Shown here in pieces: positions 2,290-26,374 of a stretch of DNA of 55,973 bases. The DNA is from an uncultured archaeon (GTDB lineage Archaea; Altiarchaeota; Altiarchaeia; JAFGQM01), in the NCBI GenBank assembly GCA_964540655.1, contig CAZINR010000002.1:1736-57708 (forward strand), in the 5' to 3' direction. The notes beneath the pieces are model-generated. The model made no database searches. It was not told the origin of the DNA and saw only the letters and a program-made list of their open reading frames with translations. The translations under genes were made by a program, and so were the position numbers. The first letter of the stretch is position 1. Each line of letters begins with the position of its first letter.

Positions 2290-2510
2290 GTTCTCAGTCT
2301 TGTGTCTATCCGGTCGGCGGGCCAAGAAAACCGAAGACTGAAGACCGCAGACCCTTTTCGCCCAAAGGCGAAAAGTAAAATCCCGCCTCCTGGAATCCAT
2401 GCTCTTCGAGCATGTTTTGGGTTGTCTGTTTTCGGTTTTCCAAGGGTTTACAGTTCACGGTTCTCAGTGAAATGGTCATCTTGGGAACACCGATTAATCT
2501 AATGAGCCTA
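2290..2510 (+). repeat. junction repeat JY2
   Basis: Left terminus ccggtcggcgg, then a GAAGAC arm. Hairpin cttttcgcc/ggcgaaaag at 2354-2375. Core tcccgcctcctgga at 2381-2394 (1 mismatch). Loop-TTC hairpin at 2398-2414. Right arm and terminal box ggtcatcttgggaacacc. Confidence 0.8.
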
Positions 2511-2611
2511 AGCTTAAAAACTCCCTGCCGAGATAATTGACAAATTAATTCTGTAGGATAATTGTACTCCCTGAACTTTTGTTTTTTTCCTTATTGCTGA
2601 AAATAAGCGAG

Positions 2612-2941
2612 ATGAGTAAGAAAAAGGAAAAGGAAGCCACATTAGGAGAACTCTTGGATAGCTTAAACACCGAAGAAGAAATCGATTTAGATAGTACTGA
2701 TTATTTACTTGATTCGTTGGTCAAACATGAATGGGGCTCTAGAACCAAGAAACCAGTAGCCAAGGAAGAATTTGAAAGGTTAAGCGCAACTCTGAAAGAT
2801 TTGATATCGGAACACAGATGGGATGATGCCGAAGAGACCATCGGAAAGATTTATTACTACGAAAAAACTGAGAAAGGGGGAGAGTTCGCCAGACGTGAGC
2901 GGGCGGTTCGGTGGTTACACTCAGCAGTGAATGTAATGTGA
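2612..2941 (+). CDS. hypothetical acidic protein
   Basis: ATG at 2612 (MSKKKEKEATLGELL...). An ORF only, with no recognised domain. Confidence 0.4.
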   Translation: MSKKKEKEATLGELLDSLNTEEEIDLDSTDYLLDSLVKHEWGSRTKKPVAKEEFERLSATLKDLISEHRWDDAEETIGKIYYYEKTEKGGEFARRERAVRWLHSAVNVM

Positions 2942-3091
2942 TGTATTGAGTGAGCATTAGACATCCCTATGTAAACCGATATTGGTCGTCACTATTTCTC
3001 GCAGGGAATAAACTTATGTCTTGCGGATAACTTATTGCGGAGACAACTATTAATCCCTTAACAGCGATAATAATGGGAGTTCACACATCAA

Positions 3092-3967
3092 GTGTCAATT
3101 CCCGAAATGTCTACTGCTTTTAGGAAACTACTGGAGGAAAGGACGCCAGCCGTTCTTGCAGGCGCGCATTCTGGCATCAGCGCAAAGATAGTCGAAGAGT
3201 GCAGCTTTGACGGCATATGGGCCAGCAGTTTTGAGATTTCTTCGCTTTTCGGCGTCCCTGATGCAAACCTGCTTTCGTTTAAAGAAATCTATGATATAGT
3301 CAGCAGTATCAGATCAGCTACTGCCTTGCCAATAATCGTTGACTGTGACAACGGGTACGGTGGTCCGATGAACGTCATCCGCACAGTAAAGGATTATGAG
3401 GCATTGGGCATCGAAGGGGTCTGCATAGAGGATAACCTGTTCCCAAAAAGGTGCAGTTTCTATGAATCGAATAACAGGGGTCTTGAGGATGCAAGGGTAT
3501 TCGCAAAGAAGATAGTTGCTGCAAAAGAGGCCCAGTGCGACCCAAACTTTTTCGTCATCGCTAGGACTGAGGCGCTTATAGCTGGGCTGAGTATGGAAGA
3601 AGCCCTAAGAAGAGCAAGAATGTATGACGACGCAGGAGCCGATGCGATACTTGTGCACTCAAAGAAAACTACAGCTGATGAGGTGAGGGAGTTTGCAGGG
3701 CTCTGGGACTCAAAAACCCCGCTGGTAGTTGTACCCACCAAGTTCCTCTCAGTGTCGTGCAAGGAGCTAGGAGATATGGGATTCAGGATAGTAATCTTTG
3801 CCAACCACGGTCTTCGGGCATCTATAAACGGCATGAGAAAAAGCCTAGCGAAACTAAGGGAAACTGGCATGCAAGAGAGCATATCCGACGGCATCTGCCC
3901 CTTGGAGGATGTTTTTAAGCTCGTAGGCCTTGCGGACTTTTTACAGAAGGAAGAGCGCTACTCATAG
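3092..3967 (+). CDS. isocitrate lyase / PEP mutase superfamily enzyme (PEP-mutase-like, atypical active-site loop)
   Basis: Superfamily hallmarks GVPDAN, IVDCDNGYG and CIEDNLFPKRCS. GTG start at 3092, with an alternative ATG at 3107. Confidence 0.8.
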   Translation: MSIPEMSTAFRKLLEERTPAVLAGAHSGISAKIVEECSFDGIWASSFEISSLFGVPDANLLSFKEIYDIVSSIRSATALPIIVDCDNGYGGPMNVIRTVKDYEALGIEGVCIEDNLFPKRCSFYESNNRGLEDARVFAKKIVAAKEAQCDPNFFVIARTEALIAGLSMEEALRRARMYDDAGADAILVHSKKTTADEVREFAGLWDSKTPLVVVPTKFLSVSCKELGDMGFRIVIFANHGLRASINGMRKSLAKLRETGMQESISDGICPLEDVFKLVGLADFLQKEERYS

Positions 3968-3968
3968 C

Positions 3969-5282
3969 ATGGACGTATTGCTTATAAATCCTGAATTTGC
4001 GGTTGCAGAGAAATACTCTAGTAACCATTTTACAGTGTGGCCGCCACTTGGGCTTCTGTCACTGGCAAGTTATCTGCGCAAGGATGGCCACAGCATACGC
4101 ATATTAGATTTGGCTTCCTATGGCGGGGATAGCTATGCAGCAATGGAACGGGCGCTATCAAAAAATCCAGATGTGGTCGGAATAACCTCCACTACCCCTC
4201 AGTTTGAGAATGCCATTGGCATAGCTAAGCTTTCAAAAAAGCTGTCGGAAGGCTCAACCGTGGTCTTTGGTGGCGTACATGCAACCGTAAAATGGCAAGA
4301 GGTTCTATCTGAAGATAGTGTAGACTATGTTGTCGCGGGGGAGGGTGAAATAGCGTTTAGCAATCTGGTTGACGCCCTAAGCACAGGCAAAAAACCGGAT
4401 TCGCCCGGCATATGCTTCAAGAGCGGCAAATGCCTGAAAAAACTGGGTGGGCAGAGCACAGTCAAGAGCCTAGATGATCTCCCGATACCAGCGTATGACT
4501 TGCTTAATATTCAAATATACCTAGACTATGTTAAACAGACTGAGGGGTTTGAGGGCCTTGCGTACATAGCCAGCAGAGGCTGCCCATTTGAATGCATATT
4601 TTGCGCGGTGAACTGCATGATGGGGAAAAAGCTTAGGCAAAAAAGCCCCGAAAGAACCGTCGAGGAGATAGAATGGCTCATCTCCAAACATGGTGCCGAG
4701 GGGATTTGGTTTAAAGACAGTACCTTCACAGCGGACAGGCGATGGGTGTTAGAGTTCTGCAAAGAGGTAAAAGAAAGAGGTTTGGATTTCGTTTGGAAAT
4801 GCAATACACGGGTGGATTGCGTAGATTCAGAGCTCCTAAGAGCCATGAAAGGCGCCGGATTGGACGGCATTTGGTTTGGCATAGAGTCTGGATCGGATCG
4901 CATCCTAAGGGTATTAAAGAAGGGATATACCACCGATCAAATAATGCGGGCAATGTCGCTTTGTGAGGAGAACGAATTGGCTGTGAGTTCCTGGATGATA
5001 ATTGGTAGCCCGACAGAGGATCTGCAGGACGTGAGGGCCTCAGTCAGGCTCGTCAGGAAGCTAAAGCTTAATAACGTCCATTGGCATACGCTAGTGCCAT
5101 TGCCGGGCAGCGAAATCTATGAGCGCATAGGTGCTATGGCGAAGGACTATTCAGATTTGAGATTTAATAAGGCAGTGATGGCGACAGGTGCGCTTACAAA
5201 GGAACAGGTACAGGTTTTATATGATCAGGTGGTCTGCCAAAATGTAAGCGGCGAACTGGATGAGAGAAAAATAGCATTATGA
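3969..5282 (+). CDS. B12-binding radical SAM enzyme (class B, methyltransferase-like)
   Basis: N-terminal cobalamin-binding-type Rossmann region, then SRGCPFECIFC (CxxxCxxC). The ATG at 3969 abuts the upstream stop. Confidence 0.85.
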   Translation: MDVLLINPEFAVAEKYSSNHFTVWPPLGLLSLASYLRKDGHSIRILDLASYGGDSYAAMERALSKNPDVVGITSTTPQFENAIGIAKLSKKLSEGSTVVFGGVHATVKWQEVLSEDSVDYVVAGEGEIAFSNLVDALSTGKKPDSPGICFKSGKCLKKLGGQSTVKSLDDLPIPAYDLLNIQIYLDYVKQTEGFEGLAYIASRGCPFECIFCAVNCMMGKKLRQKSPERTVEEIEWLISKHGAEGIWFKDSTFTADRRWVLEFCKEVKERGLDFVWKCNTRVDCVDSELLRAMKGAGLDGIWFGIESGSDRILRVLKKGYTTDQIMRAMSLCEENELAVSSWMIIGSPTEDLQDVRASVRLVRKLKLNNVHWHTLVPLPGSEIYERIGAMAKDYSDLRFNKAVMATGALTKEQVQVLYDQVVCQNVSGELDERKIAL

Positions 5283-5285
5283 AAA

Positions 5286-6701
5286 ATGGCACGAATAGCG
5301 CTGATAAATTGTCCGCCCAATGACAACCGGGAGTTCATAAGAGATGCGGTTAAATATGATGAGAAGCTCCCACTGGGCCTCTGTTATATAGCCGCGTATC
5401 TCGAGAGGAATGGTCATAACGCCTTCCTTATAGACGCATACGCGGAGGGGATAGACTCGAATGGCATAGCCGACAGGATCAAAAGGCTAAATCCGGACTT
5501 TGCAGGTGCAACCATGTTGCACCCAAATTCGCAGGAAGTTGGTCTTGTGATGTCAAAGATAAAGGAAGTCACACCTAATGTAACGACCGTTGTCGGGGGC
5601 GTACAGCCCACCCTGGAGCCAGAGTCCGTCCTGAAATCAAACCAGGGGATAGATTTGGCGGTGATTGGTGAAGGTGAAATCACGATGAAGGAGATTATGG
5701 ACAATTTTGATGCCAGAAAAGACTGTAGGAAAGTGCAAGGGGTGGCATACCGAAAAGCGGGAGAAGTGCGGCGATCTGCCGCACGGGAGAGAATATCCAA
5801 TCTAGACATATTGCCGTTCCCCGCTTTGGACAAGATACCGCTGGAGAAATACTGGGGTGAAAAGAAGGTTATGTGTATGGTCACTTCCCGAGGATGCCCG
5901 TTCCATTGCATTTTCTGTGCGAGCAGCGTCTTGTGGGGACATAGCATAACATATAGAAGCATAGAAAATGTTATGGCCGAGATAAGGCATTGGAGAGATG
6001 CATACGGATGCGATTTCTTTTATTTCAATGACATGACATTCACGATTGACCGTGGAAGGATCGATGAATTGTGCAGACGACTCACCTCAGAAGGCCTGGA
6101 CATAGAATGGAAATGCCTTACGCGGCTTGACAACCTCGACGAGGCGTTGATAGCAAGAATGGCCGACGCCGGGTGTAGGGAAATGGCCGTCGGCATAGAA
6201 AGCGGCAACCAGGATATGCAAAGGATGATACGAAAGCATCTTGACTTGAAAAGGGTGAAATGCATGATTAGGACATTGAGTTTGAATAATATAAACGTAC
6301 TGGGGCTTGCGATAATAGGCTTTCCCCGGGAGACGCCAGAGCAGATCCTGGATACTTTGAACTATCTCATATCTCTCAAAGAGGAAGGCATGAAGGAATT
6401 TGATTTGTTCCAAGCAACGCCCTATCCCGGGACAGAGCTTTACAGGATGTGCAATGGTGCTAACCCGCAATCCCACATAATAGAGGACGGCAACTGCTGC
6501 AAGGAACCAGTTATGAAGAAACAGATGAGAAGACACTCCTTCATGCCTTGTTCTTCACCAAACGAGTTCTTCAGCAGTGAAGAGCTGAGGGGGATAATCC
6601 ATCTTACCTACGAACGATTTAAGAGTGGCAAACCGTTATCTATAGACGATTTGAATCTTGGTTGTGAAAAATGGAAGAATCTTCATATGTCAGTGAGCTG
6701 A
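5286..6701 (+). CDS. B12-binding radical SAM enzyme (class B), second paralogue
   Basis: Same architecture, with TSRGCPFHCIFC. The N-terminus MARIALINCPP... parallels the upstream paralogue. Confidence 0.85.
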   Translation: MARIALINCPPNDNREFIRDAVKYDEKLPLGLCYIAAYLERNGHNAFLIDAYAEGIDSNGIADRIKRLNPDFAGATMLHPNSQEVGLVMSKIKEVTPNVTTVVGGVQPTLEPESVLKSNQGIDLAVIGEGEITMKEIMDNFDARKDCRKVQGVAYRKAGEVRRSAARERISNLDILPFPALDKIPLEKYWGEKKVMCMVTSRGCPFHCIFCASSVLWGHSITYRSIENVMAEIRHWRDAYGCDFFYFNDMTFTIDRGRIDELCRRLTSEGLDIEWKCLTRLDNLDEALIARMADAGCREMAVGIESGNQDMQRMIRKHLDLKRVKCMIRTLSLNNINVLGLAIIGFPRETPEQILDTLNYLISLKEEGMKEFDLFQATPYPGTELYRMCNGANPQSHIIEDGNCCKEPVMKKQMRRHSFMPCSSPNEFFSSEELRGIIHLTYERFKSGKPLSIDDLNLGCEKWKNLHMSVS

Positions 6702-8218
6702 ATAGCAAGGTGTTAAGCAACCTGCCAAAGAGAGTGTACGTATACGATTGCACGCTCCGAGATGGGGAGCAAACACCAGGAGTGGTATTTACGGAGGAGG
6801 AAAAAGTGCTGATTGCCGAAGCATTGGAAGGTGCTGGCGTTGACTGTATAGAAGCTGGTTTCCCGACCAACTCCAGTGGCGAGGAGCATGCTGTCGCACG
6901 CGTGGCTGCTTTAGGGCTTAAATCCAAGGTTTCTTGCCTGAGCCGCTGTTTGCCTGGCGATATAGAAGCCTCAATCAGATGCGAGCCGGATCTCGTGCAT
7001 TTGTTCATCTCTACATCGGACATACATCTGCAACATCAGATTAAAAAGAGCCGGGAGGAGGTTTACGGCATGGCCGTAGAGTCTGTGAAAAGCGTAGTCG
7101 ACAGAGGGTTCGAATGCCTGTTCTCGGCAATGGACGCAAGCAGAAGCAATTTGGACTACCTTAAAAAGGTGTATGCGGGAGTAGTTAATGCAGGAGCAAC
7201 TACCATAAACGTTCCTGAGACGGTGAATTCCCTTTGCCCCGAAGCAATGAAATACCTGGTGGGCCAATTAAAGGGGATAGGTGCCAGGATAGACGTGCAT
7301 TGTCATAACGATCTGGGGATGGCCTTGGCAAACACGCTGGCTGCGATCGAGGCTGGGGCCGAGGAGGCACAAGTCACTGTCAATGGCCTTGGTGAGAGAG
7401 CTGGCAATACCAGCCTAGAGCAGCTGGCGGTCATACTCGAGCTGGTGTATGGCGTCAAAACGGGCATAAAGCTGGAGAAGCTCACTGAGTTGTCAAACCT
7501 CATGGCAAAGTACAGCGGCATAGAACCATACCCGCTGCAGCCGATAATAGGAAGGAACGCTTTTGCGCACGAAAGCGGGATTCATGTGCAGGGCATACTT
7601 GAAAGGGCCAAGACTTTCGAGGCCTTTGCCCCAGAGCTCGTTGGTCAGAGGAGAAGACTAGTGCTAGGTAAACATGCCGGAAAGCATGGGGTAGACGCAA
7701 CTCTCAAGTCGATGGGATACTCTGGGTACTCTTCAAGTGAATTGGGAGCCATCAGCAGGCGGGTGAAGGAACTAGCAGAAAAGCAAAAAAAGGTATTCGA
7801 TGAGGACATCAGGGCTATTGTAGACTCGGCACTCGGTAAGGGTCAAGATGAAGGGCCAATCAAACTGGAGGAAATTGAGATAATGACGGGCAACAAGGTG
7901 AAGCCAAGGGCCAAAGTCAGCCTTCGGGTCAATGGCAAGCTGATTGAAGCATGCGGGAATGGAGTAGGGCCGGTAGATGCCGCCATAAGCACAATAGAAT
8001 CGGCGATAAAGGGGTTTGCAAACATAAGGCTCGTGAAGTATGAACTTGCCGCAATAACCGGCGGTACGGATTCCCTAAGCGACTGCAAAGTCACGATAAA
8101 AGACACTATGGGGGAGGACTATGTGGGGCACGCTGTGCATGAGGACATTGTGCAGGCTTCTATCAAGGCCATAATAAACGCCATGAACTCTGCAATGAGG
8201 CGTAGGGGGGGACGGTGA
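6671..8218 (+). CDS. 2-isopropylmalate / homocitrate / citramalate synthase family enzyme (DRE-TIM plus LeuA-type C-terminal domain)
   Basis: YDCTLRDGEQTPG, HCHNDLGMALANTLAA and HESGIH motifs; 515 aa including the regulatory domain. Confidence 0.85.
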   Translation: MEESSYVSELNSKVLSNLPKRVYVYDCTLRDGEQTPGVVFTEEEKVLIAEALEGAGVDCIEAGFPTNSSGEEHAVARVAALGLKSKVSCLSRCLPGDIEASIRCEPDLVHLFISTSDIHLQHQIKKSREEVYGMAVESVKSVVDRGFECLFSAMDASRSNLDYLKKVYAGVVNAGATTINVPETVNSLCPEAMKYLVGQLKGIGARIDVHCHNDLGMALANTLAAIEAGAEEAQVTVNGLGERAGNTSLEQLAVILELVYGVKTGIKLEKLTELSNLMAKYSGIEPYPLQPIIGRNAFAHESGIHVQGILERAKTFEAFAPELVGQRRRLVLGKHAGKHGVDATLKSMGYSGYSSSELGAISRRVKELAEKQKKVFDEDIRAIVDSALGKGQDEGPIKLEEIEIMTGNKVKPRAKVSLRVNGKLIEACGNGVGPVDAAISTIESAIKGFANIRLVKYELAAITGGTDSLSDCKVTIKDTMGEDYVGHAVHEDIVQASIKAIINAMNSAMRRRGGR

Positions 8219-8841
8219 AGGAGACAAAAGAAAGCATTGAGCACCTGGAGCGTGTAGCTGATTGTTTGAGAAAAAATGGGTTCGATGCAAAAGTTTTTAT
8301 CGATCCTAATGGCATGGCCGATTATTTTCTGGATAAGATAGGCGCACATGATACTGTGGGTCTGGGCGGTTCGGTAACTATTGCAGAAACTGGCATAATC
8401 GAGCGGCTGGAGCTCAGGGGCAACATTATCTACAACCCATATGTCCAGCGCACAAGAAAGGAAGAGATGGACACAAGACGGAAGTGTCTACTGTCAGACT
8501 GGTTCATAACTGGGTCAAATGCAGTGACCGAGAATGGCCAGTTAGTCAATGTAGATGGCTTAGGCAGTAGGGTTTCAGCGATAGCATTCGGGCCGAAAAA
8601 TGTTCTGATAGTCGTTGGGAAGAACAAGATAGTGCCTGATGTTGAAGGGGGCTTCCAAAGGATAAAGGATCTGTCAGCACCGAAAAATGCGAAAAGGCGC
8701 GGCAATAAAACACCATGCGTAGACGGTAGATGCCCAGGATATGTCCCCGGGGAATGCATATGCAACATCCAGTCAGTTATTAATGGAGATGCTGCAGGCA
8801 GGATACATATCGCGCTAATATATCAAGAAATGGGCTATTAA
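8215..8841 (+). CDS. LUD-domain (LutC/YkgG-like) protein
   Basis: GTG start overlapping the upstream stop. TGSNAVTENGQLVNVDG and a C-terminal Cys cluster resemble the lactate-utilisation LUD family as I remember it. Confidence 0.5.
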   Translation: MKETKESIEHLERVADCLRKNGFDAKVFIDPNGMADYFLDKIGAHDTVGLGGSVTIAETGIIERLELRGNIIYNPYVQRTRKEEMDTRRKCLLSDWFITGSNAVTENGQLVNVDGLGSRVSAIAFGPKNVLIVVGKNKIVPDVEGGFQRIKDLSAPKNAKRRGNKTPCVDGRCPGYVPGECICNIQSVINGDAAGRIHIALIYQEMGY

Positions 8842-8855
8842 CGGAGCGGTTAAAG

Positions 8856-9959
8856 ATGTACGGCATAGAATCGGATGTATGCAAATTCATAGCAGACGGA
8901 GGTTATGGCAGGATTGTCTACGTCCCTTCGAGCAGTCTGGCTAAGTTGATAAGCCTCATTGAAAAAAGATGCCATTGCGAAGTCGCCACAAACGAGTCGG
9001 AAGCTACTGGGCTTGCAATAGGGTACCATCTTGCGGGCATAAAGCCGATTTTGCTTTGCCAGAGCGATGGTGTTGCTGTCATGTTGAATACCCTGTGCTC
9101 CACATGCTTGCCTTACGGGATAGACCTGCTAGTTCTTGTTGACGTTAGGGGCGGCCCCGAAGAGGAGAATCCCGTACACATACCCTTCGGCCAAGGCTTG
9201 CCGTCAGTTCTGGACGCACTGGGGTTCCCATACCTGGAGGTTCGGAAGAGCGCGGATTTTGAGGGTTTTGTGCTCAAACATGCGAGCAAGCCTAGGCAGA
9301 CACCCTTTTTCCTTTTGATATACCCATCCGCACTGACAAAGCCTGAAAAGAAGAACCCGCGGGATGTTCTGCAGAATCCAGATACAGGTGATACGACAAT
9401 TGATGCATTGAAAAAGATGTTTCCAAGCTCCAAATTCGTTTCCAGTCTTGGCTTGACTAGCCGGTTGCTGCATGGGGGCTGGGACGATAAGCACAATTTT
9501 TATGTGCTGGGATCAATGGGCGATTCCTTGGGCATTGCAAACGCTATATCAAAAACTAATAGCCGAAAGACTGTATGTGTAGTGGGCGATGGAGAGCTCT
9601 TAGCGGGCCTTGGCACTCTGGCAAAGATTGCTATTGACAAAAGTAATCTGCTTGTCGTAGTCCTGGATAACGAATGTCATCTGAGCACCGGAGGACAGAA
9701 CACCCTAACAGCAGAGGGTCTGAGATTTGATTTGGTAGCCAACGCTGTTGGTATCAAGCACACTAAGATGCTAGATGGTGTGGGGCAACTAAACGCCGAG
9801 CTTAATATTATACGCAAGAGCAGGGAGCCCGCTCTCATAGTCATAAAGGCGCAGCGGTGCGTACCGAGTTATCCTAGGATAAGAATGTGCCCTAACGAGA
9901 TAAAACATAGGTTCATGAAAGGATTCGAAAATAGCCCTATTAATGGGGACAAGGGGTAG
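8856..9959 (+). CDS. ThDP-dependent 2-oxoacid decarboxylase, fused alpha-beta, of the phosphonopyruvate / sulfopyruvate decarboxylase family
   Basis: N-terminal NESEATGLAIGY-type PYR domain. C-terminal GSMGDSLG...VGDGELL...LDNE ThDP-binding motif. Confidence 0.7.
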   Translation: MYGIESDVCKFIADGGYGRIVYVPSSSLAKLISLIEKRCHCEVATNESEATGLAIGYHLAGIKPILLCQSDGVAVMLNTLCSTCLPYGIDLLVLVDVRGGPEEENPVHIPFGQGLPSVLDALGFPYLEVRKSADFEGFVLKHASKPRQTPFFLLIYPSALTKPEKKNPRDVLQNPDTGDTTIDALKKMFPSSKFVSSLGLTSRLLHGGWDDKHNFYVLGSMGDSLGIANAISKTNSRKTVCVVGDGELLAGLGTLAKIAIDKSNLLVVVLDNECHLSTGGQNTLTAEGLRFDLVANAVGIKHTKMLDGVGQLNAELNIIRKSREPALIVIKAQRCVPSYPRIRMCPNEIKHRFMKGFENSPINGDKG

Positions 9960-9960
9960 A

Positions 9961-10980
9961 ATGGCGGCATCTTGGAACTTATTGGACTGCACATTAAGGG
10001 ATGGCGGATCAACCATCGGGTTTAACTTTCAGTTTGATGTCATCAATAGGGTACTTACTGGTCTTTCAAACGCAGGCATTGATTATGTCGAGCTGGGCTA
10101 TAGATCGGGGTCAGGGAGCGTACATGTTGAGAAGCCAGGCCCCACAGCTGACGTGAACAGAAGCTTCTTGGAGCAGATTGACTTCAGCACAAAAATAAAA
10201 AAGGCCGTGATGATAATACCTGCGGTTGCCAAAACCGAAGATTTGGATGTCCTTGCCGAATTCGGCATAGACCTTGTTAGGATAGCCGTGTACCCGCATA
10301 ACTTCGAAAATGCCATGGCCTTCGTTGATGCTGCGCTTAGATTGGGGCTTGAGTGCAGCGTGAATCAGATGGCCTCAAGCTATATGAGTGCAGATGACTT
10401 AGTGAAAAATGCTCTCGCAGTACAAGAGTGTGGCGCAAGCGTCTTTTATTTTGCGGATTCGTATGGGCATTTCATGCCGGAGGATGTCAACAGGCGAGTA
10501 GAGGCGTTAAAAGAGCAGTTAGATATGGAAATAGGCTTTCACGCCCATAACAACCTATCGCTGGGTTTATCAAATGCTATTGCTGCTATACGCTCTGGCG
10601 CAGACTTCATTGACGCCTCTCTTTGTGGCATGGGCAGAGGGGCGGGAAATGTGCAGATAGAGCTATTACCGTTCGTTCTTGATCTGGCAGACTTGAGTCG
10701 CCCGCAGGTTGACAAATCAGCACTGATGGAACTAAGTTCCATAATTGCCCCCCTGCGAAAAAATCCGTATTTGGGCACCGCAGAGATAATCTCTGGATCT
10801 TGCAACCTGCATTTCTTTTTCTATGAGCTCATACAACGGGCATCTCAGAAACTGGGCGTTTCGGAAATGGACATTGCGAGGGGGCTAAGTGCAATAAAAC
10901 CAAAGAAGGTAAGCGAGGAGCTGACCTTTGAAGTCGCTAGACAGATTTTATCCAACCATGGAGATAACATTCAGATCTAA
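9961..10980 (+). CDS. DRE-TIM metallolyase, 4-hydroxy-2-oxovalerate aldolase (DmpG)/HMG-CoA-lyase-like
   Basis: ATG at 9961 just after the upstream stop. LLDCTLRDGG and FHAHNNLSLGLSNAIAA motifs; DmpG-like length. Confidence 0.65.
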   Translation: MAASWNLLDCTLRDGGSTIGFNFQFDVINRVLTGLSNAGIDYVELGYRSGSGSVHVEKPGPTADVNRSFLEQIDFSTKIKKAVMIIPAVAKTEDLDVLAEFGIDLVRIAVYPHNFENAMAFVDAALRLGLECSVNQMASSYMSADDLVKNALAVQECGASVFYFADSYGHFMPEDVNRRVEALKEQLDMEIGFHAHNNLSLGLSNAIAAIRSGADFIDASLCGMGRGAGNVQIELLPFVLDLADLSRPQVDKSALMELSSIIAPLRKNPYLGTAEIISGSCNLHFFFYELIQRASQKLGVSEMDIARGLSAIKPKKVSEELTFEVARQILSNHGDNIQI

Positions 10981-11368
10981 GGGCTTCGGAGACTTGCAAG
11001 ATATCACAAAAGAAGTAGAAAAGATTGCGAACCTATCGAGCGTATCAAGCGGCATCATAACCCTATTCATCAGGGGCTCAACAACAGCCCTTGTGATTTA
11101 TAAAAATGATGCGGGTTCCATCCAAGATTTGATGGAAGCGCTTGGGGATCTCGCCCCGGCTGACAAAATATACAAGCACGAACAGACTTCGGGCGACAGC
11201 AATGGCGCGTCGCATATAAAGTCGGGGTTATTGGGGCCCTGCCTCACAATACCCTTTGTGGAAAACGAACTTTGTATCAGCAAAACACAAACAATTTTTG
11301 CCGTAGATTTTGATCCAAAGGAATCAAATCGAAGTATAATTGCGTGTGTATCAAAGGCGGAAGTCTAG
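10958..11368 (+). CDS. YjbQ/UPF0047 family protein (secondary thiamine-phosphate synthase-like)
   Basis: ATG at 10958. Family-typical GIITLFIRGSTTAL...NGASHIKSGLLGP. Confidence 0.7.
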   Translation: MEITFRSKGFGDLQDITKEVEKIANLSSVSSGIITLFIRGSTTALVIYKNDAGSIQDLMEALGDLAPADKIYKHEQTSGDSNGASHIKSGLLGPCLTIPFVENELCISKTQTIFAVDFDPKESNRSIIACVSKAEV

Positions 11369-11435
11369 ATGTAAAGACAGCTTGGATGCATCATTATCTT
11401 ACGGATGAGCAAAGCGGTTTATCATGGTCTCCGAG

Positions 11436-11561
11436 ATGAAGACGAAGATCTTCATAGTCCGTCACGGCAAATCCGAGGGTAACCTGAAGAGATGCTTCCA
11501 GGGCAGGGATGATATGCCTCATATACCCAGCAATTTGCATATTCTCTCAATTGCCACATAG
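11436..11561 (+). pseudogene. N-terminal remnant of a histidine phosphatase (PGAM-like) gene
   Basis: Own translation MKTKIFIVRHGKSEGNLKRCFQGRDDMP carries the RHG catalytic motif. It then runs into the 3' end of the convergent gene and stops after 41 codons. The full-length paralogue at 22058-22645 starts MRAILVRHGKTERSE. Confidence 0.55.
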
Positions 11562-12193
11562 CGGGTGCCCAGGAAATACTGCAGCTGTTTCCTTGCCAAA
11601 TCCATCCCGCCTATGAGTTCATCGAGCAGCTGCCCAGTGCCGATCAGTTCGGCGTATAACTTAATGTCGGGCATCTGCTCGCCGATAGAACTGTAATAAT
11701 TCGCAACCTTTCGGGCAGAATCCCCATCAACTGGAAGAATCAGTCTTAGATCCTTTTCATGTCTGAATGGATTGCGCATTCCGGGAATAAATCTCTCGGG
11801 TATCCCAGCTTCCTTTAATGCCGCGTCCCTATAGCCCATCTGGACAGAGTGTATGCGCGTCTTGTTAGCTGCATAGAAACGGATCACTTCGCCTTTGATA
11901 CTTTCAGGTATCTCCGTCTCGGGTTTTCCGAGCCACGAGCTTATAAGGTCCTCTGCGACTTTCCCATCTTTTTCGCCAAACAAGCGCTCGTATACGCCTA
12001 TGTTGATGATGTCCAGCTTTTTTGGTGTGGGCGTGCTATTTGCCATGATTTTGTCGACGTCAATTCCTGCGCTGTCAAAAATCAAACCCTCCGGAAGGCG
12101 CATCTTGGATGCAGTCCACCTGAATACTGCCTGAAAGGTCGGGCTGCGCTGGATGTTGCCGGAATCCACGCACCTGATTATGCATTTCTCCAT
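11519..12193 (-). CDS. hypothetical protein with a low-molecular-weight phosphatase-like N-terminus
   Basis: CVDSGNIQRSP resembles the LMW-PTP P-loop CxGNxCRS, but the C-to-R spacing is longer. The functional call is weak. Confidence 0.4.
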   Translation of the reverse strand: MEKCIIRCVDSGNIQRSPTFQAVFRWTASKMRLPEGLIFDSAGIDVDKIMANSTPTPKKLDIINIGVYERLFGEKDGKVAEDLISSWLGKPETEIPESIKGEVIRFYAANKTRIHSVQMGYRDAALKEAGIPERFIPGMRNPFRHEKDLRLILPVDGDSARKVANYYSSIGEQMPDIKLYAELIGTGQLLDELIGGMDLARKQLQYFLGTRYVAIERICKLLGI

Positions 12194-12295
12194 TGCATTC
12201 TAGTTAGAGTTCAGAAAAAGAAAAGCCGGCTTTTGATTAACCTCTTTTGACCGGGATGGCGCCCTTTGACCTCAAAGCACGAAGCCTGCTGCCAT

Positions 12296-12536
12296 CTACA
12301 AAGCCGCCAAAGCTAAGGAAGCAAGTGAAGGTCCAACCAATGTAACTGGTTTGAACCGAGGATAATGTCCCGCCTCCCGGAATCTAGGCGCTTCGCGCCT
12401 GTTTTCAGTTTTCTGTCCTGGGTCTTCCTTGGGTTTCCAGCACGAAGGTCCCGACGGGACCTTGTGCGCAGGTTTGTCTTCGGCAAACCTCGCGTTCTCG
12501 GTTTTCGAACTGGTCATTTTGAACACTGTTTTAGCA
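12296..12536 (+). repeat. junction repeat JY3
   Basis: Core at 12368-12381. Hairpin aggcgc-ttc-gcgcct at 12386-12400. Double-module at 12441-12494. Terminal box ggtcattttgaacac. The left flank lacks the GAAGAC arm. Confidence 0.8.
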
Positions 12537-12863
12537 TTAATAACCAAACCGCCTTTCGTAGTTCTTGTGGTCAAGCCACTCTAAGATGATGGAAATAATC
12601 TTCACTTCATCATCCGCCACAGAGTACATCAGCCTCCACCCGTTGGGCAGGTCGTATTTCCAGAGGTTGTCAATCCCATACTTCTTATAATCCTTTGAGA
12701 TTAGCCTTTTCGGCACATGGATTCCTGCTGAATGATCTCTCTTAAGATCCTCAATAGCCCTACTGATATATTCATGGAGGCGCTTGTCCTCATACTTTCC
12801 CCCTTTCAGATTTTCGTATGCTTCCTTAAGCTTTTCATCAACAAAATAGACCTCAGTTTTCAT
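12537..12863 (-). CDS. RelE/ParE-superfamily toxin-like protein
   Basis: 108 aa with C-terminal WRLMYSVADDEVKIISIILEWLDHKNYERRFGY, typical of a RelE-fold toxin. 4-nt overlap with the upstream partner. Confidence 0.55.
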   Translation of the reverse strand: MKTEVYFVDEKLKEAYENLKGGKYEDKRLHEYISRAIEDLKRDHSAGIHVPKRLISKDYKKYGIDNLWKYDLPNGWRLMYSVADDEVKIISIILEWLDHKNYERRFGY

Positions 12864-13117
12864 GCCTTCAACCTCGGATTGCTCGTTATCCTCCTTACAA
12901 GTTCAGGGTTCCAGACCCAGATTATCTGTCCGTCCTTTATTATGATCTTTCCAGAGTCCTGCAGGTAATCAAGGATGACGTTGAACGTCTGGTACATAAC
13001 CTTCTTCGGCAGGGATTTCCAAAGCTGCTTCTTTGTAGGATAGTCCTCATGTTCTTGTATGGCTTTTTCCACCATCAACACCGTATCCAACCTCGGATAA
13101 TGTAAAACCGCTTGCAT
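12860..13117 (-). CDS. antitoxin candidate (winged-helix-like)
   Basis: 85 aa, translationally coupled upstream of the toxin-like gene. Confidence 0.45.
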   Translation of the reverse strand: MQAVLHYPRLDTVLMVEKAIQEHEDYPTKKQLWKSLPKKVMYQTFNVILDYLQDSGKIIIKDGQIIWVWNPELVRRITSNPRLKA

Positions 13118-13157
13118 TTTTCAGTTATATATGTTTATACAATTAAAGAATAAAAAG

Positions 13158-13490
13158 GTTTTCTGTTTTCTAACCGGTCGGCGGTCAGGAAGACTCAAGA
13201 CCGATAACTGAAGACTGAAAATAATCCCGCCTCCCGGAAGGTATGCCCTTCGGGCATGTTTTGGGTTTTCTGTCCTGCGTCTTCCTCAGGTTTCCAGTTC
13301 ACTGTTTTCTGTGAACTGGTCATCTGGGAAACCCCGGGTAGGTTAATGAAAGTACAAAGAAAAATTACGCGCTCCGCCCGAATGTCACAAAGTGACATTG
13401 GGCGCAACTTCGCTTCGCGAAGTTCGCGCGCTAAGGACATAAAGGTAGGTGTTACACTACGACATGGACCATATGTAGTGTAAAACGCTC
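13158..13490 (+). repeat. junction repeat JY4
   Basis: taaccggtcggcgg terminus and GAAGAC arm. Core at 13225-13238. Hairpin atgccc-ttc-gggcat at 13243-13257. Hairpin at 13294-13319. Box gtcatctgggaaacc, then A-box acaaagaaaaa. Module at 13378-13429. TTACACTAC hairpin at 13452-13482. Confidence 0.85.
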
Positions 13491-13556
13491 ATTCTGTCTA
13501 ATAAATAGGCACTACAAAATTTAAAAGGTTTTTATTTCTGTAGCGCCTAAGTATAC

Positions 13557-14489
13557 ATGTCTTATTTAAGAGAAAAGAGGTCTGGAAAGAAAACTGGAAT
13601 TTACCTCACACAGAGTATACGTCTCAACGGTAAAATCAGGAATATTAGTGTTCTTTTGGGGTACAAACCAATAAGCGACATAGATAAATTAAAAAAACAA
13701 AAAGAGCCGATACTGAAAAAGAAGATAGAGCGGCTTCTATCTTCCGAAAGAGAGGATTACATGCTTTTGTCCGAGCAGGAAAGGCAAACCCTAAAGAATC
13801 TGGCTGAAGCTTATCAAAAAGCCCTCAAAAAATTCGACCCCGTCACCAAACAGAAATATCTTGACTGGTTCCTGACGCAGTTCACTTACGATACCAATGC
13901 GATAGAAGGCTCAAGCGTCCCTCTGGAAGAAGTCGGCCTGATATTATTCGACAAGGTAGTGCCTGCAGACAGGAATTTGAGGGAGGTCTACGAGGTCCAG
14001 AATCATAAGAAGGCATACGATTTCATAAACAAATATGTGGGCGATCTCAACTTTAAATTCATTATGGATGTCCATAGGCGCTTGATGTCAGAGATTATCT
14101 CAGATGCGGGAAAGACGCGTAAGGTTCGCGTGTTTGTAAGGGGATCTGACTTAAAGCCGCCCAAACCGGAAGACGTCTCAAAACATCTGGAAAATCTGGT
14201 CAAATGGTACAAGTCAAACAAATCTTTGCACCCTGTCTTGTTGGCAGCCCATATCCACTCGGAATTCGAGAGGATCCATCCGTTCAGGGACGGAAACGGC
14301 AGGACCGGCAGGCTCCTTCTTAACTTCATATTAATAAAGAACGACTATCCGCCGATAAACATACTGAATGAGAAGAGGGGCGCGTATTATTCGGCCCTTA
14401 GGGCTTGGGACAAAGGCGAAAAAAGACCTTTTGTCGAGCTTGTAATCTCATACATAAAAGACAGTGTCGGTTTTGTCACTAATCCCTAA
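13557..14489 (+). CDS. Fic/DOC family protein (AMPylase-type) with an internal inhibitory helix motif
   Basis: HPFRDGNGRTGRLL matches the Fic motif HxFx(D/E)GNGRxxR. TNAIEG matches the (S/T)xxxE(G/N) auto-inhibition motif. Confidence 0.9.
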   Translation: MSYLREKRSGKKTGIYLTQSIRLNGKIRNISVLLGYKPISDIDKLKKQKEPILKKKIERLLSSEREDYMLLSEQERQTLKNLAEAYQKALKKFDPVTKQKYLDWFLTQFTYDTNAIEGSSVPLEEVGLILFDKVVPADRNLREVYEVQNHKKAYDFINKYVGDLNFKFIMDVHRRLMSEIISDAGKTRKVRVFVRGSDLKPPKPEDVSKHLENLVKWYKSNKSLHPVLLAAHIHSEFERIHPFRDGNGRTGRLLLNFILIKNDYPPINILNEKRGAYYSALRAWDKGEKRPFVELVISYIKDSVGFVTNP

Positions 14490-14855
14490 CCTGTCGGCGG
14501 TCAGGAGGACTCAAGACCGATAACTGAAGACTGAAAATAATCCCGCCTCCCGGAATCCAGGCGCTGCGCCCGAAGGTCCCACCGGACCTTGGGCGCAACT
14601 TCTCTTCGAGAAGTTCGCGCGCCTGTTCACGAGCTTCGACTTCGTCGAAGCTGTGCGCAGGTTCTCCTTGAGAACCTCGCGTTCGGTCTTCTGTTCTGGG
14701 TTTTCCTCAGGTTTGCAGTCCACGGTTTTCTGTGGACTGGTCATCTTGGAAACACCCGGACTTTAACGAAAATACAAAGAAAAACTTATGCGCCTCCGGC
14801 GCAAAGGACATGAATCAGTGTTACACTACAACACGGGCAAGTGTAGTGTAAAACG
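14490..14855 (+). repeat. junction repeat JY5
   Basis: Core at 14541-14554. Double-modules at 14571-14621 and 14628-14681, the latter identical to 1333-1386. Hairpin at 14716-14739. Box gtcatcttggaaacaccc. A-box. TTACACTAC hairpin at 14821-14851. Confidence 0.85.
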
Positions 14856-14956
14856 CTTTTTAATTCTTGAATCCATAATATTAACACCACCTCACGGTGC
14901 CGAACCGTGAGACCCTCCTGGGCAACTTCGGTTGCGTCCAGGGGGACTTTACTCTT

Positions 14957-15643
14957 ATGACCAACAAGATACGCGTCAATTTCTACATAGATGGCTTCAA
15001 CGTTTATCACAGATTAAAGGACTACACCGAAAAGGCTGGTATTTGCTACAACTGGCTCGATTACAAAAGCCTGCTCAGTTCTCTACTCAAAGAGGGCGAG
15101 GAACTGGGCGAGATCTATTTCTTCACGGCCATATCTCAAAGGCACGGCGCTGACTCGGTTGTCAGACACAACAAATACGTCACCGCCCTAGAAGCCACTG
15201 GCGTTAATGTAGTCAAGGGCTATTTTACCAAGAAATACCGCAAGTGTAAGGTCAGGAGTTGCACTTATAAGGGCTTTAAGGAGTATCCTGACGAAGAAGA
15301 AAAAGAGACTGATGTCAAGATTGCTGTCCAAATGCTGAAAGATGCGGTAAATGATAAATTTGACAGATGTTTCCTGATGTCGGGCGATAATGATTTCGGC
15401 CCCGTTCTATTAGCGATTAAGGAATTGCGTCCAGACAAACAGGTCGGTTTGATAACGCCTCCTTTTGAACCCGGTATAGTGGACCTGATTAAGATGAGTG
15501 GGTTGAAAAAGGCATGTAGCGAGTGCAAAGGCCCGAGAATAAAAATGACGTTTGATAGACTTAAGGGGCATTCTTTGCCAAAGGAGGTAACAATTCCTGG
15601 AAAGCCGCCTGTCAAGATGCCAAAGGGTTATCGTACTTTTTAA
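14957..15643 (+). CDS. NYN-domain (LabA-like) putative RNase
   Basis: ATG at 14957. The N-terminus RVNFYIDGFNVYH and the later SGDNDF are the acidic motifs of NYN/LabA-like PIN-fold proteins. Confidence 0.65.
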   Translation: MTNKIRVNFYIDGFNVYHRLKDYTEKAGICYNWLDYKSLLSSLLKEGEELGEIYFFTAISQRHGADSVVRHNKYVTALEATGVNVVKGYFTKKYRKCKVRSCTYKGFKEYPDEEEKETDVKIAVQMLKDAVNDKFDRCFLMSGDNDFGPVLLAIKELRPDKQVGLITPPFEPGIVDLIKMSGLKKACSECKGPRIKMTFDRLKGHSLPKEVTIPGKPPVKMPKGYRTF

Positions 15644-15950
15644 CCGGTCGGCGGTCAGGAGGACCCAAGACTGAAGACCGCAGACCCTTTTCGCCCAAAG
15701 GCGAAAAGTAAAATCCCGCCTCCCGGAATCCAGGCGCGAAGCGCCTGTTCTCAGTTTTCTGTTTTGGGTCACTAGGTTCATCTGCGATGAACCTGTGCGC
15801 AACTGCCTTGCGGGCAGTTCGCGTTTCCCCAGGTTCCCAGTTCACGAGATTCGCCTTTAGCGAATCTGTGCACAGGTTCTCGGAGAGAACCTCGTGCTCT
15901 GCCGGAACCATCTCGGAAACACCTAGAGCGTAAGGAAAGCACAAAGAAAA
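15641..15950 (+). repeat. junction repeat JY6
   Basis: The taaccggtcggcgg terminus contains the NYN stop codon. Hairpin cttttcgcc/ggcgaaaag. Core at 15714-15727. Hairpin aggcgc-gaa-gcgcct at 15732-15746. Double-modules at 15770-15823 and 15843-15896. A-box. Confidence 0.85.
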
Positions 15951-15983
15951 ACATTTTTATCGACTAAGCCCCTAATATACACT

Positions 15984-16241: not shown

Positions 16242-16519
16242 TAGGCAACAAGGAATACAAGCCAAAACGCTCTAAATACTTCGAGAAGGATTATGTCTCG
16301 CTTGTGAGAAAGAACAGAGGTTTGCAAGAAAGACTTGACAAGAAGATACTGCAGATACTCGGGATGCCTGAGGTTTACAAGAACCTGAAGAAGCCCTTAC
16401 AGAGGTACAAAGCCGCGCATGTCGACCCATTTGTCATCACCTTCAGGATAGACGGGGATTATGTGAGGTTTGTCAGGGTTGCACACCATGATGTGGTTTA
16501 TGGGCTTCCACACGATTAG
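16238..16519 (+). CDS. RelE/ParE-superfamily toxin (HHD-type C-terminus)
   Basis: 93 aa; FVITFRIDGDYVRFVRVAHHDVVYG; coupled to the RHH gene. Confidence 0.6.
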   Translation: MIGNKEYKPKRSKYFEKDYVSLVRKNRGLQERLDKKILQILGMPEVYKNLKKPLQRYKAAHVDPFVITFRIDGDYVRFVRVAHHDVVYGLPHD

Positions 16520-16705
16520 TTCTCAGTTCTCTGTTTTTGCATTCCAACCGGTCGGCGGTCAGGAAGACTCAAGACTGAAGACTGAAAAAGGTCCCGCCTC
16601 CCGGAATGTAGGACCTTCGGCCCTGTCTTCGGTCTTTGTGTGGTTCACTGTCTACGGTCTTGTCTATAGGCCTGACCATTTTGAACACCGGACAGACTAA
16701 CGAAA
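16520..16705 (+). repeat. junction repeat JY7 (short form, no double-modules)
   Basis: ccaaccggtcggcgg plus GAAGAC arm. Core at 16592-16605. Hairpin aggacc-ttc-ggccct at 16610-16624. Terminal box gaccattttgaacacc. Confidence 0.8.
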
Positions 16706-16718
16706 CTATTGACATGAC

Positions 16719-17219: not shown

Positions 17220-17500
17220 GGCTTTCCGTCTTGTCCGGTCGGCGGTCAAGTCGGTCTTCAGTCTTGGGTTTTCAGTCCTCGCTTGGATATCAAAAACCGA
17301 AGACTGTAAACTGTAGACCACTCCCCGAAGGGGAGTAAAATCCCGCCTCCCGGAGGGCCGCTTCGCCCGAAGGTCCCACCGGACCTTGGGCGCAACTTCT
17401 CTTCGAGAAGTTAGCGCGGCTGTCTACGGTCTTCTGTCTAGAGTCTTGGAAAGGTCTTCTGTCTACGGTCTGCGTAGACAGAGCCATTTTGAATCCTGCA
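17220..17500 (+). repeat. junction repeat JY8
   Basis: ccggtcggcgg. An inverted arm copy gtcggtcttcagtcttgggttttcagtcc. Hairpin ctcccc-gaa-ggggag. Core at 17341-17354. Module at 17368-17418, equal to 14571-14621 with 1 difference. Hairpin gtctacg/cgtagac. Box gccattttgaatcc. Confidence 0.8.
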
Positions 17501-17614
17501 CACTTACGATTCTGATATTATAAACCCATGACTAACAAAGGTGGCTGCAGATTGACAATATGGCATTTTTTAACAAGAAAGCCTTATATTAGCGCAAAAT
17601 TTGTAGGTGATAAA

Positions 17615-20419: not shown

Positions 20420-20505
20420 TTCTCTTGGCTTAGACTGAAAACCTCTCCGGGCAGACCCTGGACTGAAGACCGCAGACCCTTTTCGCCCAAAGGCGAAAAG
20501 TAAAA
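20420..20505 (+). repeat. junction half-repeat JY9 (left arm only) abutting the tRNA-Tyr 3' end
   Basis: agactgaaaacc...ggactgaagaccgcagac, then the hairpin, then gtaaaa. The same left arm occurs in JY2 and JY6. The core here is the functional tRNA 3' end. Confidence 0.8.
20479..20500 (-). terminator. T-tract plus 9-bp hairpin immediately downstream of tRNA-Tyr
   Basis: The minus strand reads ...GGGA TTTTAC CTTTTCGCC TTTG GGCGAAAAG. The same element is copied in JY2 (2354-2375) and JY6. Confidence 0.4.
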
Positions 20506-20616
20506 TCCCGCCTCCCGGATTTGAACCGGGGATCTTCCGGTAACCGTCTTTTCTCAGGCTCTCGCCCGAAAGCAAACTACAGCCAGACGCGTTAAACCAG
20601 ACTACGCTAAGGCGGG
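20506..20616 (-). tRNA. tRNA-Tyr(GTA) with a 35-nt intron at 37/38
   Basis: Manual fold of the minus strand: CCCGCCT-TA-GCGT-AGTCTGGTTTA-ACGC-G-TCTGG-CTGTAG[intron]A-CCGGA-AGATC-CCCGG-TTCAAAT-CCGGG-AGGCGGG-A. C1-G72 is the archaeal/eukaryal Tyr identity pair. No CCA is encoded. Confidence 0.85.
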
Positions 20617-24812: not shown

Positions 24813-24816
24813 AAAA

Positions 24817-25256: not shown

Positions 25257-25295
25257 TTTTGTGCAGTAATTAGAAGGTTGGACTAAAAGAATCTT

Positions 25296-25470: not shown

Positions 25471-25522
25471 AGAGGCTTTCCAAAGAAAGGTTTTTATCCT
25501 TAATGTATCAAAATGATACACT

Positions 25523-26303: not shown

Positions 26304-26374
26304 AAGCGGTCTTGAGTTTTCAGTCTTCCGTCCTCTGACGAAGGCGCTTAGTTAGAATATTCCGGAATAAAAGA

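Follow-up and report, generated by a model that had tools for sequence, protein, structure and literature searches.

SNJ2-type archaeal integrases work with a 14-bp core at the 3′ end of a tRNA gene, conserved P and P′ arms and a winged-helix DNA-binding helper (PMC5861418), and tycheposons integrate one after another at a single tRNA, displacing older elements outward (bioRxiv 10.1101/2020.12.28.424599). Casposons form tandem arrays that share a duplication and leave solo ends (PMC4779613), and those of Methanosarcina have 14-bp duplications and integrate into tRNA-Leu genes (PMC4779613; PMC5137440). Here we analyse a 55,973-nucleotide stretch of DNA from an uncultured Altiarchaeota archaeon (contig CAZINR010000002.1, positions 1,736 to 57,708; hereafter the window), in which small cassettes stand in tandem at tRNA genes and meet in long, mosaic joints. 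Our best reading of one such unit, JY4 (13158–13490), is the joint between two neighbouring recombinase-less cassettes stacked at the 3′ end of a tRNA-Tyr gene. For the units in general we favour, with a probability of roughly 55%, the view that non-autonomous cassettes have accreted at tRNA 3′ ends with the help of an enzyme encoded in trans, the units being their composite recombination sites; the layout of the joints suggests an integron-like gene-capture system.

This view builds on the anatomy of the joints, the statistics of their repeats, covariation in their hairpins, a terminus that depends on the tRNA, similarity shared only at cassette ends and the recurrence of a cassette elsewhere, all of which are directly supported; recombination itself, an enzyme acting in trans and protein binding at the iterons are what we infer. 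Each cassette would carry both halves of a composite site, one per end, and a unit would arise where the right end of one cassette meets, across a shared 14-nt core, the left end of its neighbour. A recombinase encoded elsewhere would recombine the cassette site with the terminal 14 nt of the tRNA gene, leaving that gene intact and shifting older cassettes outward. The functional kernel would consist of the core and, 25–95 nt upstream, the terminus, which is its imperfect inverted copy; the two may fold into a short, centrally mismatched stem that imitates the acceptor/T-arm duplex of the tRNA. Mirrored arrays of 7-bp iterons would be accessory sites for the recombinase or a helper protein; these arms probably also stop transcription, including tRNA and cassette transcripts, because they are T-rich after the core in both reading directions. 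Small bulged hairpins would be nested, structure-selected modules that make the units mosaic.

Anatomy of the joints

An earlier note on this DNA had listed nine parts for JY4, and all of them are present at 13158–13490, far above chance; parts of the same type recur in ~15 units at three tRNA genes of the window. On the plus strand the unit opens with an in-phase heptamer pair, GTTTTCT GTTTTCT (13158–13171), which ends the upstream cassette in right-arm orientation. The terminus, or inverse core, AACCGGTCGGCGG (13172–13184) reads CCGG-TC-GGCGG, an imperfect inverted copy of CCGCC-TC-CCGG in the core, and leads into a purine-rich left arm of five heptamers (GAAGACT CAAGACC GATAACT GAAGACT GAAAATA, 13185–13224) that on the minus strand forms a T-rich trailer 3′ of the tRNA-derived core. 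The core itself, TCCCGCCTCCCGGA (13225–13238), is the 14-nt direct repeat that bounds every cassette and the reverse complement of the final 14 nt of tRNA-Tyr, comprising one T-loop base, the 3′ strand of the T-stem, the 3′ strand of the acceptor and the discriminator. Beyond it lie the post-core hairpin H1 (TATGCCC-TTC-GGGCATG, 13242–13258), a right arm that mirrors the left (GTTTTGG GTTTTCT GTCCTGC GTCTTCC, then TCAG, 13258–13289) and, still in heptamer phase, a conserved hairpin CCAGTTCAC-TGTTTTCT-GTGAACTGG (13294–13319) with a compensated variant in JY5 (CAGTCCACGG..CTGTGGACTG) and a further variant in JY2. The unit closes with a conserved box GGTCATCTGGGAAACCCC (13318–13335; variants GGTCATCTTGGRAACACC and CCATTTTGAACACC), an A-box ACAAAGAAAAA found only in JY4, JY5 and JY6 (13354–13364), a hairpin double module of two abutting, oppositely oriented units (13373–13431) and an inverted repeat GTGTTACACTAC..GTAGTGTAAAAC upstream of a Fic gene (13449–13486; word pair GTTACACTAC..GTAGTGTAA). 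In predicted folds the interval is more stable than shuffled controls, as DNA and as RNA of either strand: none of 100 shuffles is as stable (z = −7.7 as DNA, −6.3 as plus-strand RNA and −6.6 as minus-strand RNA).

The direct repeat is strongly over-represented, with eight core copies (≤2 mismatches) against 0.71 expected, at 2381 (one mismatch), 12368, 13225, 14541, 15714, 16592, 17341 and 20506, plus a decayed copy near 1297; the decayed cores are the most distal two, JY1 and JY2. Terminus copies number seven against 1.26 expected, and at the Tyr joints the terminus matches the inverted core with p = 0.0015–0.05 per joint. At tRNA-Gly, where the core has another sequence, the termini CCGCCGGCCCCA and CCGTCGGCCTCA each match the inverted core TGCGGCCGCCGG at 10 of 12 positions by eye and at 9 of 12 in an ungapped 12-mer shuffle test (p = 0.005 and 0.0115). 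The inverted relation holds for five different tRNA loci, the sequence following the tRNA; each cassette therefore has target-specific information on both sides of a variable spacer. The terminus lies 25–95 nt upstream of the core, the terminus–core stem has a mismatch or wobble near its centre in every case, and in minimum-free-energy folds the terminus pairs with the core in JY4, JY7, JY8, the tRNA-Gly joints JG2 and JG3, and all mini-elements. A possible bias at the mismatches, with the terminus carrying the same-strand base as the core in 6 of 9 cases by eye, is too weak and too non-independent, and we do not use it.

The mini-elements just mentioned are gene-less 80-nt units at tRNA-Gly and at a third, tRNA-like gene (~52.4 kb), bounded by tRNA-end copies. 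Within each lie a hairpin and a sequence that repeats its own tRNA end in inverted form (p = 0.014 in both cases), and the inverted tRNA-end copy is found again (p = 0.002) in an orthologous mini-element on L142, one of the related or comparison contigs from other samples (L121, L127, L128, L133, L134, L137, L139, L142 and L144). On L128 (9560–9968) at least four tandem ~89-nt units stand directly downstream of another tRNA (p = 0.025), each made of a hairpin, an inverted core and a 17-nt tRNA 3′ end, with an N gap inside the array. We also observe that the tRNA-Gly mini-element (26105–26184) is homologous to the third-tRNA mini-element of L142 (GGCRAGGTGGACAC...CATATGACC). A joint on L139 (3830–3960) passes from a cassette terminus directly to right-arm heptamers and a box-like sequence, with no left arm, core or post-core hairpin; it may have lost its centre by recombination or deletion.

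Hairpins in the joints keep their shape while changing sequence. In the H1 alignment 94.6% of cells are paired and five of seven pairs show changes on both sides, a covariation that none of 500 shuffles reaches and that slid registers do not come close to either. The unit from which the double modules are built has a 3-bp G+C base (CRC/GYG), a 1-nt bulge that is mostly G, a variable 8–9-bp stem closed by A–T and a 3–5-nt loop, its shape maintained as the stem sequence varies. These units were counted by an explicit structural descriptor; a MAFFT alignment of the modules had the first hairpin out of register. The window contains 20 against 0.3 in shuffles, every one of them in a tRNA-linked joint, and the L133 and L137 joints have one each. 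Double modules number 0–2 per joint, near-identical copies occur in different joints, and their placement varies (within the H1 loop in JY5 and JY8, giving T-shaped structures; after the A-box in JY4). Perfect hairpins of ≥8 bp follow the same distribution, 18 in 3.0 kb of joints versus 6 in the other 52.9 kb, with ~3 expected window-wide. The hairpins and modules of the earlier note are thus real, with two corrections: the loops are 3-nt triloops, and the modules measure 57–60 nt by our delimitation, not 51–54 nt. In host intergenic DNA at 40404–40446 two perfect hairpins stand side by side (GCTCAACC-TTC-GGTTGAGC and GGGAAAGGT-GAA-ACCTTTCCC); as a candidate double module outside the joints we rejected them, since they do not fit the unit descriptor, and they may be a terminator.

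On the T-rich strand the arms are runs of 2–4 in-phase heptamers with a strict 7-nt period. From 106 in-phase heptamers the consensus is G-T-Y-T-T-C-N, where GT at positions 1–2 was demanded by the search pattern, 97% have a pyrimidine at position 3, 73–75% a T at positions 4 and 5, and 70% a C at position 6; about half of the heptamers are GTCTTC. Tandem in-phase heptamers occur 22 times against 1.7 expected, 18 of the 22 inside joints. The heptamers run in mirror-image orientation on the two sides of the core, both at two different tRNAs and in L133 and L137, and an identical arm type surrounds the different core at tRNA-Gly as well as the cores in the arrays of L133 and L137. Runs in right-arm orientation are frequent upstream of the terminus too, as in JY2 (2290–2310) and JY7 (16519–16540). 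This repetition and orientation are consistent with the iterons being accessory protein sites, to which binding is putative. Directly 5′ of tRNA-Gly there are four further heptamers in right-arm orientation (GTCTTGA GTTTTCA GTCTTCC GTCCTCT, 26304–26340), and the whole tRNA-Gly gene is therefore framed by arms, as a core is.

The arms had been described as imperfect reverse complements able to pair across the core into a long stem. Their complementarity is real, left-with-right duplexes being more stable than shuffles (z −1.8 to −3.8), but it is a general property of the heptamer family: two arms taken from one joint, or from one cassette, pair no more stably than arms mixed from different joints. 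Complementarity of this kind follows from inverted arrays of one word family and hence gives no evidence of a selected long stem, and the specific cruciform spanning the core was dropped as an explanation. More informative are the bulged hairpin units and the pair formed by inverse core and core. Recognition as a folded strand, also raised in the earlier note, is now better supported, for H1, the hairpin units and the terminus, not for the arms; we rate the odds of the site being read as a folded single strand or as a duplex as roughly even. For a role as RNA we obtained no positive evidence: Rfam gave no match at E ≤ 1 in 13100–14900, and at the gathering threshold of Rfam 15 the window returned only two tRNAs and no family for the unit.

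Another recurrent word, GTTACACTAC(A), forms inverted pairs upstream of the Fic (13449–13486) and NYN (14818–14855) genes. In relatives it appears as 2–3 direct repeats ~22 bp apart at cassette borders (L128 2879–2935 and 3064–3095; L139 4564–4595; L127 as well). It may be a second kind of protein-binding site.

Cassettes and arrays

Eight cassettes are stacked at tRNA-Tyr, seven of 0.76–3.2 kb and one of 10 kb. The small ones carry ParE/YoeB-type toxin–antitoxin sets, Fic, NYN, and KaiC with two further genes, and two more toxin–antitoxin cassettes lie at tRNA-Gly (ParE, YoeB and HicAB types overall); genes of these kinds are the usual cargo of mobile cassettes. The 10-kb cassette (2381–12381), bounded by tRNA-Tyr cores, looks like a phosphonate synthesis cluster: it encodes PEP mutase, two B12-binding radical-SAM enzymes, HMGL/LeuA-like enzymes, a LUD-domain protein and a TPP-dependent enzyme that is possibly a phosphonopyruvate decarboxylase. 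Cassettes have 44–48% G+C versus 56% in the host. Similarity among them is confined to the ends and covers no more than the first ~320 nt and the last ~90 nt; their cargo is unrelated.

One cassette is seen again on four further metagenomic contigs, in different settings. Cassette 12368–13238, which ends at the JY4 core, is collinear with a cassette of L133 at 79% identity over 655 bp, from the box (CATTTTGAACAC, 12515) to the first heptamers before the terminus; the L133 homologue is second from the tRNA, not sixth as in the window. Further homologues sit beside tRNA-Tyr (L128), beside a Tyr core (L137) and between other cassettes (L139). In L121, at 32% G+C, a one-gene 0.75-kb cassette stands beside tRNA-Tyr with the same terminus and core and AT-rich spacers. 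Together with end-only similarity and the decayed distal cores, this recurrence bears out the tandem arm–core–arm joints with attL- and attR-like ends that had been proposed. The ends fit this too: nearest the tRNA a joint carries a left arm alone, and the distal joints carry a right arm alone.

We mapped hairpins and words in all 13 joints, and the map agrees with the earlier note that the left arm is absent from JY1, JY3 and JG1 and that the tRNA-proximal JY9 has nothing but a left arm. At tRNA-Tyr, on the plus strand, the distal JY1 (1255–1545) has a decayed core TCCCGCCTCACC, no left arm, two double modules and the box CCATTTTGAACACC; JY2 (2290–2530) is a full unit whose core has one mismatch (CCTCCTGG); and JY3 (12340–12545), lacking the left arm, follows the 10-kb phosphonate cassette. 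JY5 (14470–14865) is a full unit with one double module inside the H1 loop and a second after it, JY6 (15630–15965) a full unit with a left-arm hairpin and two double modules, JY7 (16530–16715) a compact unit free of modules, and JY8 (17220–17525) a unit whose terminus-to-core segment is a palindrome of heptamers and a hairpin. JY9 adjoins the intact, intron-bearing tRNA-Tyr (20430–20616, minus strand). The second array (24580–26303, minus strand) is anchored on tRNA-Gly and comprises joints JG1–JG3 with core TGCGGCCGCCGG, heptamer arms and a matching inverse core; it holds the two toxin–antitoxin cassettes and the 80-nt gene-less mini-element at 26105–26184. A third locus (52160–52540, minus strand) comprises a tRNA-like gene with its 3′ end near 52399, anticodon TCG by eye and a long intron, which was missed both by ARAGORN and at the Rfam gathering threshold. 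It is preceded by two direct partial copies of its own 3′ end, with the 80-nt gene-less element and one double module between the copies, a layout that is the same in the L142 ortholog. The repeat differs in length by tRNA (14, 13–15 and 17 nt), and its tRNA-side boundary falls 1–2 nt into the T-loop at all three tRNAs.

The Tyr array coincides with a block of 47% G+C (~1.3–20.5 kb) that adjoins host DNA of 56% G+C, and window genes including L15e and PurP-type enzymes fit an archaeal, Altiarchaeota-related host; among named organisms the nearest L15e, at 65% identity, is that of Candidatus Altiarchaeota. The two tRNAs that Rfam recovers, at 20506–20616 and 26185–26303, are both on the minus strand and both interrupted by introns; the first is tRNA-Tyr (50.3 bits, anticodon GTA by eye) and the second tRNA-Gly (anticodon TCC by eye). 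ARAGORN reported no tRNA gene in the window, because these genes carry introns.

Several neighbouring and comparison loci are recorded here as observations in their own right. An 85-residue product encoded at 12860–13117 (minus strand), without a Pfam match, is the first gene of a three-gene set with a YoeB-like toxin; its family is very conserved, with 1396 database matches and 60–90% identity among the 120 matches listed, and has members in Aenigmatarchaeota, Micrarchaeota, Nanoarchaeota, Diapherotrites and Acidiplasma. L144 (Aenigmatarchaeota, 31% G+C) has a toxin–antitoxin island directly after its EF-1alpha gene (3960–11100), with 86–134-nt repeats every 0.6–1.5 kb; the island is possibly a further cassette array, anchored on a protein gene, or else the repeats may be a small gene in several copies. 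L134 (6365–8461) combines toxin–antitoxin and defence genes with unrelated repeated joints (TTTATCCCCCCGGGATAA...) spaced 719–780 bp apart.

Weighing the explanations

Several results count against recombination by an enzyme acting in trans. Pfam scans of ~60 open reading frames (ORFs) detected no recombinase of any kind in the 56-kb window, and none was found beside the arrays in L128, L133 and L137; nor was there a direct sign of mobility, neither an excised circle nor an empty site being seen. The terminus of JY2 and JY6 pairs elsewhere in the minimum-free-energy fold, that of JY9, JY3 and both L128 Tyr joints is missing or unrecognisable, and in L133 and L137 it has shrunk to TCGGCGG(G). 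The terminus–core stem is short, and fold z-scores are only −0.9 to −5.4, mostly from internal hairpins. Strand preference is inconsistent among joints and mini-elements: the mini-elements and the wobble pairs of H1 favour the plus strand, and JG2, JG3 and JY8 the minus strand. Finally, the related loci are few and from a single lineage, so many copies are non-independent. Wider searches added little. A pattern scan of genome contigs with CCGGTCGGCGGNCARGARRAC gave 118 single chance matches in G+C-rich bacteria, the pattern being too degenerate; a metagenome scan for terminus, gap and core gave eight matches, seven by chance in high-G+C DNA and only L121 real; scans of viral contigs returned nothing, or only chance matches in coding DNA; BLAST of the unit against plasmids and phages found no match; and exact look-up of the window proteins found none on record.

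The main rival is a casposon- or CRISPR-like insertion: a Cas1-type casposase, or a different transposase, would dock on the conserved T-loop and cleave a set distance away, and the 14-nt core would be the resulting target-site duplication and not a crossover site. On this view the terminal inverted repeats of the cassettes would be the mirrored arms, and mini-casposons without PolB or Cas1, mobilised in trans, would extend the array at the tRNA-proximal copy as at a CRISPR leader. The Aciduliprofundum casposase is said to require the T-loop part of tRNA-Pro beside a 15-bp duplication, and here too the repeat boundary sits just inside the T-loop at all three tRNAs; the repeat has the 14-nt length of the Methanosarcina duplications, both ends consist of a few nucleotides, a hairpin and ~4 heptamers in mirror order, one arm family serves different tRNAs, and the distal copies are the decayed ones. 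We nevertheless consider this improbable, given that neither Cas1 nor PolB (family B polymerase) was found in the window or related loci, that the end tips are not mutual inverted repeats (ATCCA.. versus TTTTA..), that the repeat length varies among tRNAs, and that a duplication model neither needs nor explains a tRNA-specific inverse core. We give less credence still to pure transcriptional punctuation, with arms and hairpins acting as bidirectional terminators or insulators and as RNA-stabilising hairpins, placed 3′ of the tRNA and between cassettes that are expressed independently, and having no role in recombination. Archaeal transcription terminates at oligo-T tracts, and the joints are purine-rich before the core and T-rich after it in either direction (GTTTTCN runs, TTTT tracts); H1 followed by TGTTTTGGGTTTTCTG resembles a hairpin with a U-tract, and the minus-strand left arm starts with ATTTTACTTTTCGCC directly 3′ of the tRNA. 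Mere T-richness is exceeded, however, by the strict 7-nt phase and the 97% pyrimidine at position 3 (GT being invariant by search pattern), half of the heptamers are GTCTTC with only two Ts, no Rfam family matches, and the tRNA-derived direct repeats, the tRNA-specific inverse core and the variable hairpin units are left unexplained.

About equally unlikely is that the hairpins are selfish palindromic repeats (REP/BIME- or MITE-like) that spread through non-coding DNA independently of any cassette movement. The double modules do vary from 0 to 2 per joint and in place, each is a BIME-like inverted pair of hairpin units, and near-identical ones occur in different joints. But every one of the 20 units belongs to a tRNA-linked joint, the remaining 53 kb having none; therefore they are not genome-wide intergenic repeats. 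No RAYT or IS200/IS605 TnpA was found near the joints, and the idea covers the modules only, not core, terminus, arms or box; it is less a competitor of the best explanation than a supplement to it. That nothing moved at all, and that local duplication and unequal crossing-over of tRNA flanks preceded illegitimate gene capture, is very unlikely: slippage or unequal exchange could yield the identical ~89-nt tandem mini-elements of L128, but the cargo of neighbouring cassettes is unrelated and of foreign composition, one cassette is found in other organisms' arrays at different positions, and one end architecture is joined to different tRNA cores. Least credible is bridge-RNA-guided recombination of the IS110 type, in which the unit would encode or mimic the guide RNA of a DEDD recombinase. 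The units are long and highly structured, and on L127 (1–300) a gene at the contig edge, 230 nt from the 3′ end of tRNA-Tyr with two to three GTTACACTACA words between, starts with MNYVGLDVHKEYCQAAILDEK, whose 21 residues resemble the N-terminus of an IS110-like DEDD transposase. Yet a six-frame search of the window for the N-terminal motif, together with the Pfam scans, found no DEDD transposase; IS110 elements have just 2 nt of core in common with their target, and flanking 14-nt repeats such as those seen here are not known for them; and the terminus is a plain reverse complement of the core, not a split guide for both strands.

We therefore return to cassettes accreted in trans. Archaeal integron-like capture proper, with tRNA 3′ ends as landing sites, a foldable attC analogue read as single-stranded DNA and cassettes down to ~90 nt, is possible but less likely than not. 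In a variant, a solo Cas1 moves the cassettes, and the arrays would be a living intermediate of casposons and CRISPR arrays. If cassette accretion is correct, this lineage builds defence, toxin–antitoxin and biosynthetic islands from tiny recombinase-less cassettes at several tRNAs, and the tRNA-end repeat with an inverted copy 25–95 nt away and GTYTTCN arrays provides a searchable archaeal signature. A new single-strand recombinase and a casposase acting in trans are both candidates for the missing enzyme; each would have implications for the origins of integrons and CRISPR arrays, and each could offer a compact tRNA-targeted insertion system.

Comparison with known systems

As in integrons, the arrays consist of small, mostly single-operon cassettes rich in toxin–antitoxin genes that have only their recombination sites in common, and the site directly follows the cargo, the stop codon overlapping the terminus in JY5 and JY6. 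Like attC, the unit has a variable, partly palindromic middle flanked by a core and its inverse core in opposite orientations, with bulged bases and a hairpin shape conserved despite sequence change. The differences from integrons are considerable: there is no intI (Pfam, ~60 ORFs), attI or Pc, and the array is anchored on a tRNA gene; the RYYYAAC/GTTRRRY boxes are replaced by the tRNA-Tyr-derived inverse core CCGGTCGGCGG and core CCGCCTCCCGG; several tRNAs serve as anchors, other tRNAs having other core sequences; a further 100–250 nt of conserved sequence (H1, iterons, box) follows the core; and the cassettes lie in either orientation, seemingly with their own promoters, in an archaeal host. 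An inverse core that follows the tRNA has the logic of attC and of the CTX-phage attP, where a plain duplex attP or a target duplication needs none. The CTX-phage attP, used by XerCD at dif, likewise has two inverted target-like copies tens of nucleotides apart that can form a stem with a mismatched centre, and CTX-phage-type elements also pile up in tandem at one chromosomal site; here, though, the target is a tRNA end and not dif, phage genes are lacking and single-strandedness is putative.

REP/BIME elements resemble the double modules in their ~30-nt inverted pairs of imperfect palindromes, conserved base and mosaic arrangement, but the units here are confined to tRNA-linked joints, no RAYT was found and the host is an archaeon. 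With casposons the arrays share a 14-bp repeat, tRNA 3′ ends, tandem arrays with a shared repeat, inverted ends and solo-end remnants (PMC4779613), and differ in having no Cas1 or PolB, end tips that are not inverted repeats and a tRNA-specific inverse core inside the element. As in tRNA-targeting integrative elements with tyrosine integrases (lambda-like attP; archaeal SNJ2 type), a direct repeat of a tRNA 3′ segment bounds each element and the tRNA gene stays intact; SNJ2 likewise has a 14-bp core and conserved arms (PMC5861418). Tandem accretion in which newer elements push older ones outward is likewise shared with CIME/ICE elements, tycheposons and Islander islands. Unlike these, none of >10 cassettes here has an integrase, cassettes shrink to 0.76 kb and gene-less units to ~90 nt, and mirror-symmetric 7-bp iteron arms accompany the inverse core. 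The proposed site unites a tRNA-end core, the inverse-core/core hairpin of attC and the CTX attP, and iteron arms, so far known from separate systems. We accordingly class these units as tRNA-targeted integrative cassettes of a known type, but with an integron-like logic that is new here.

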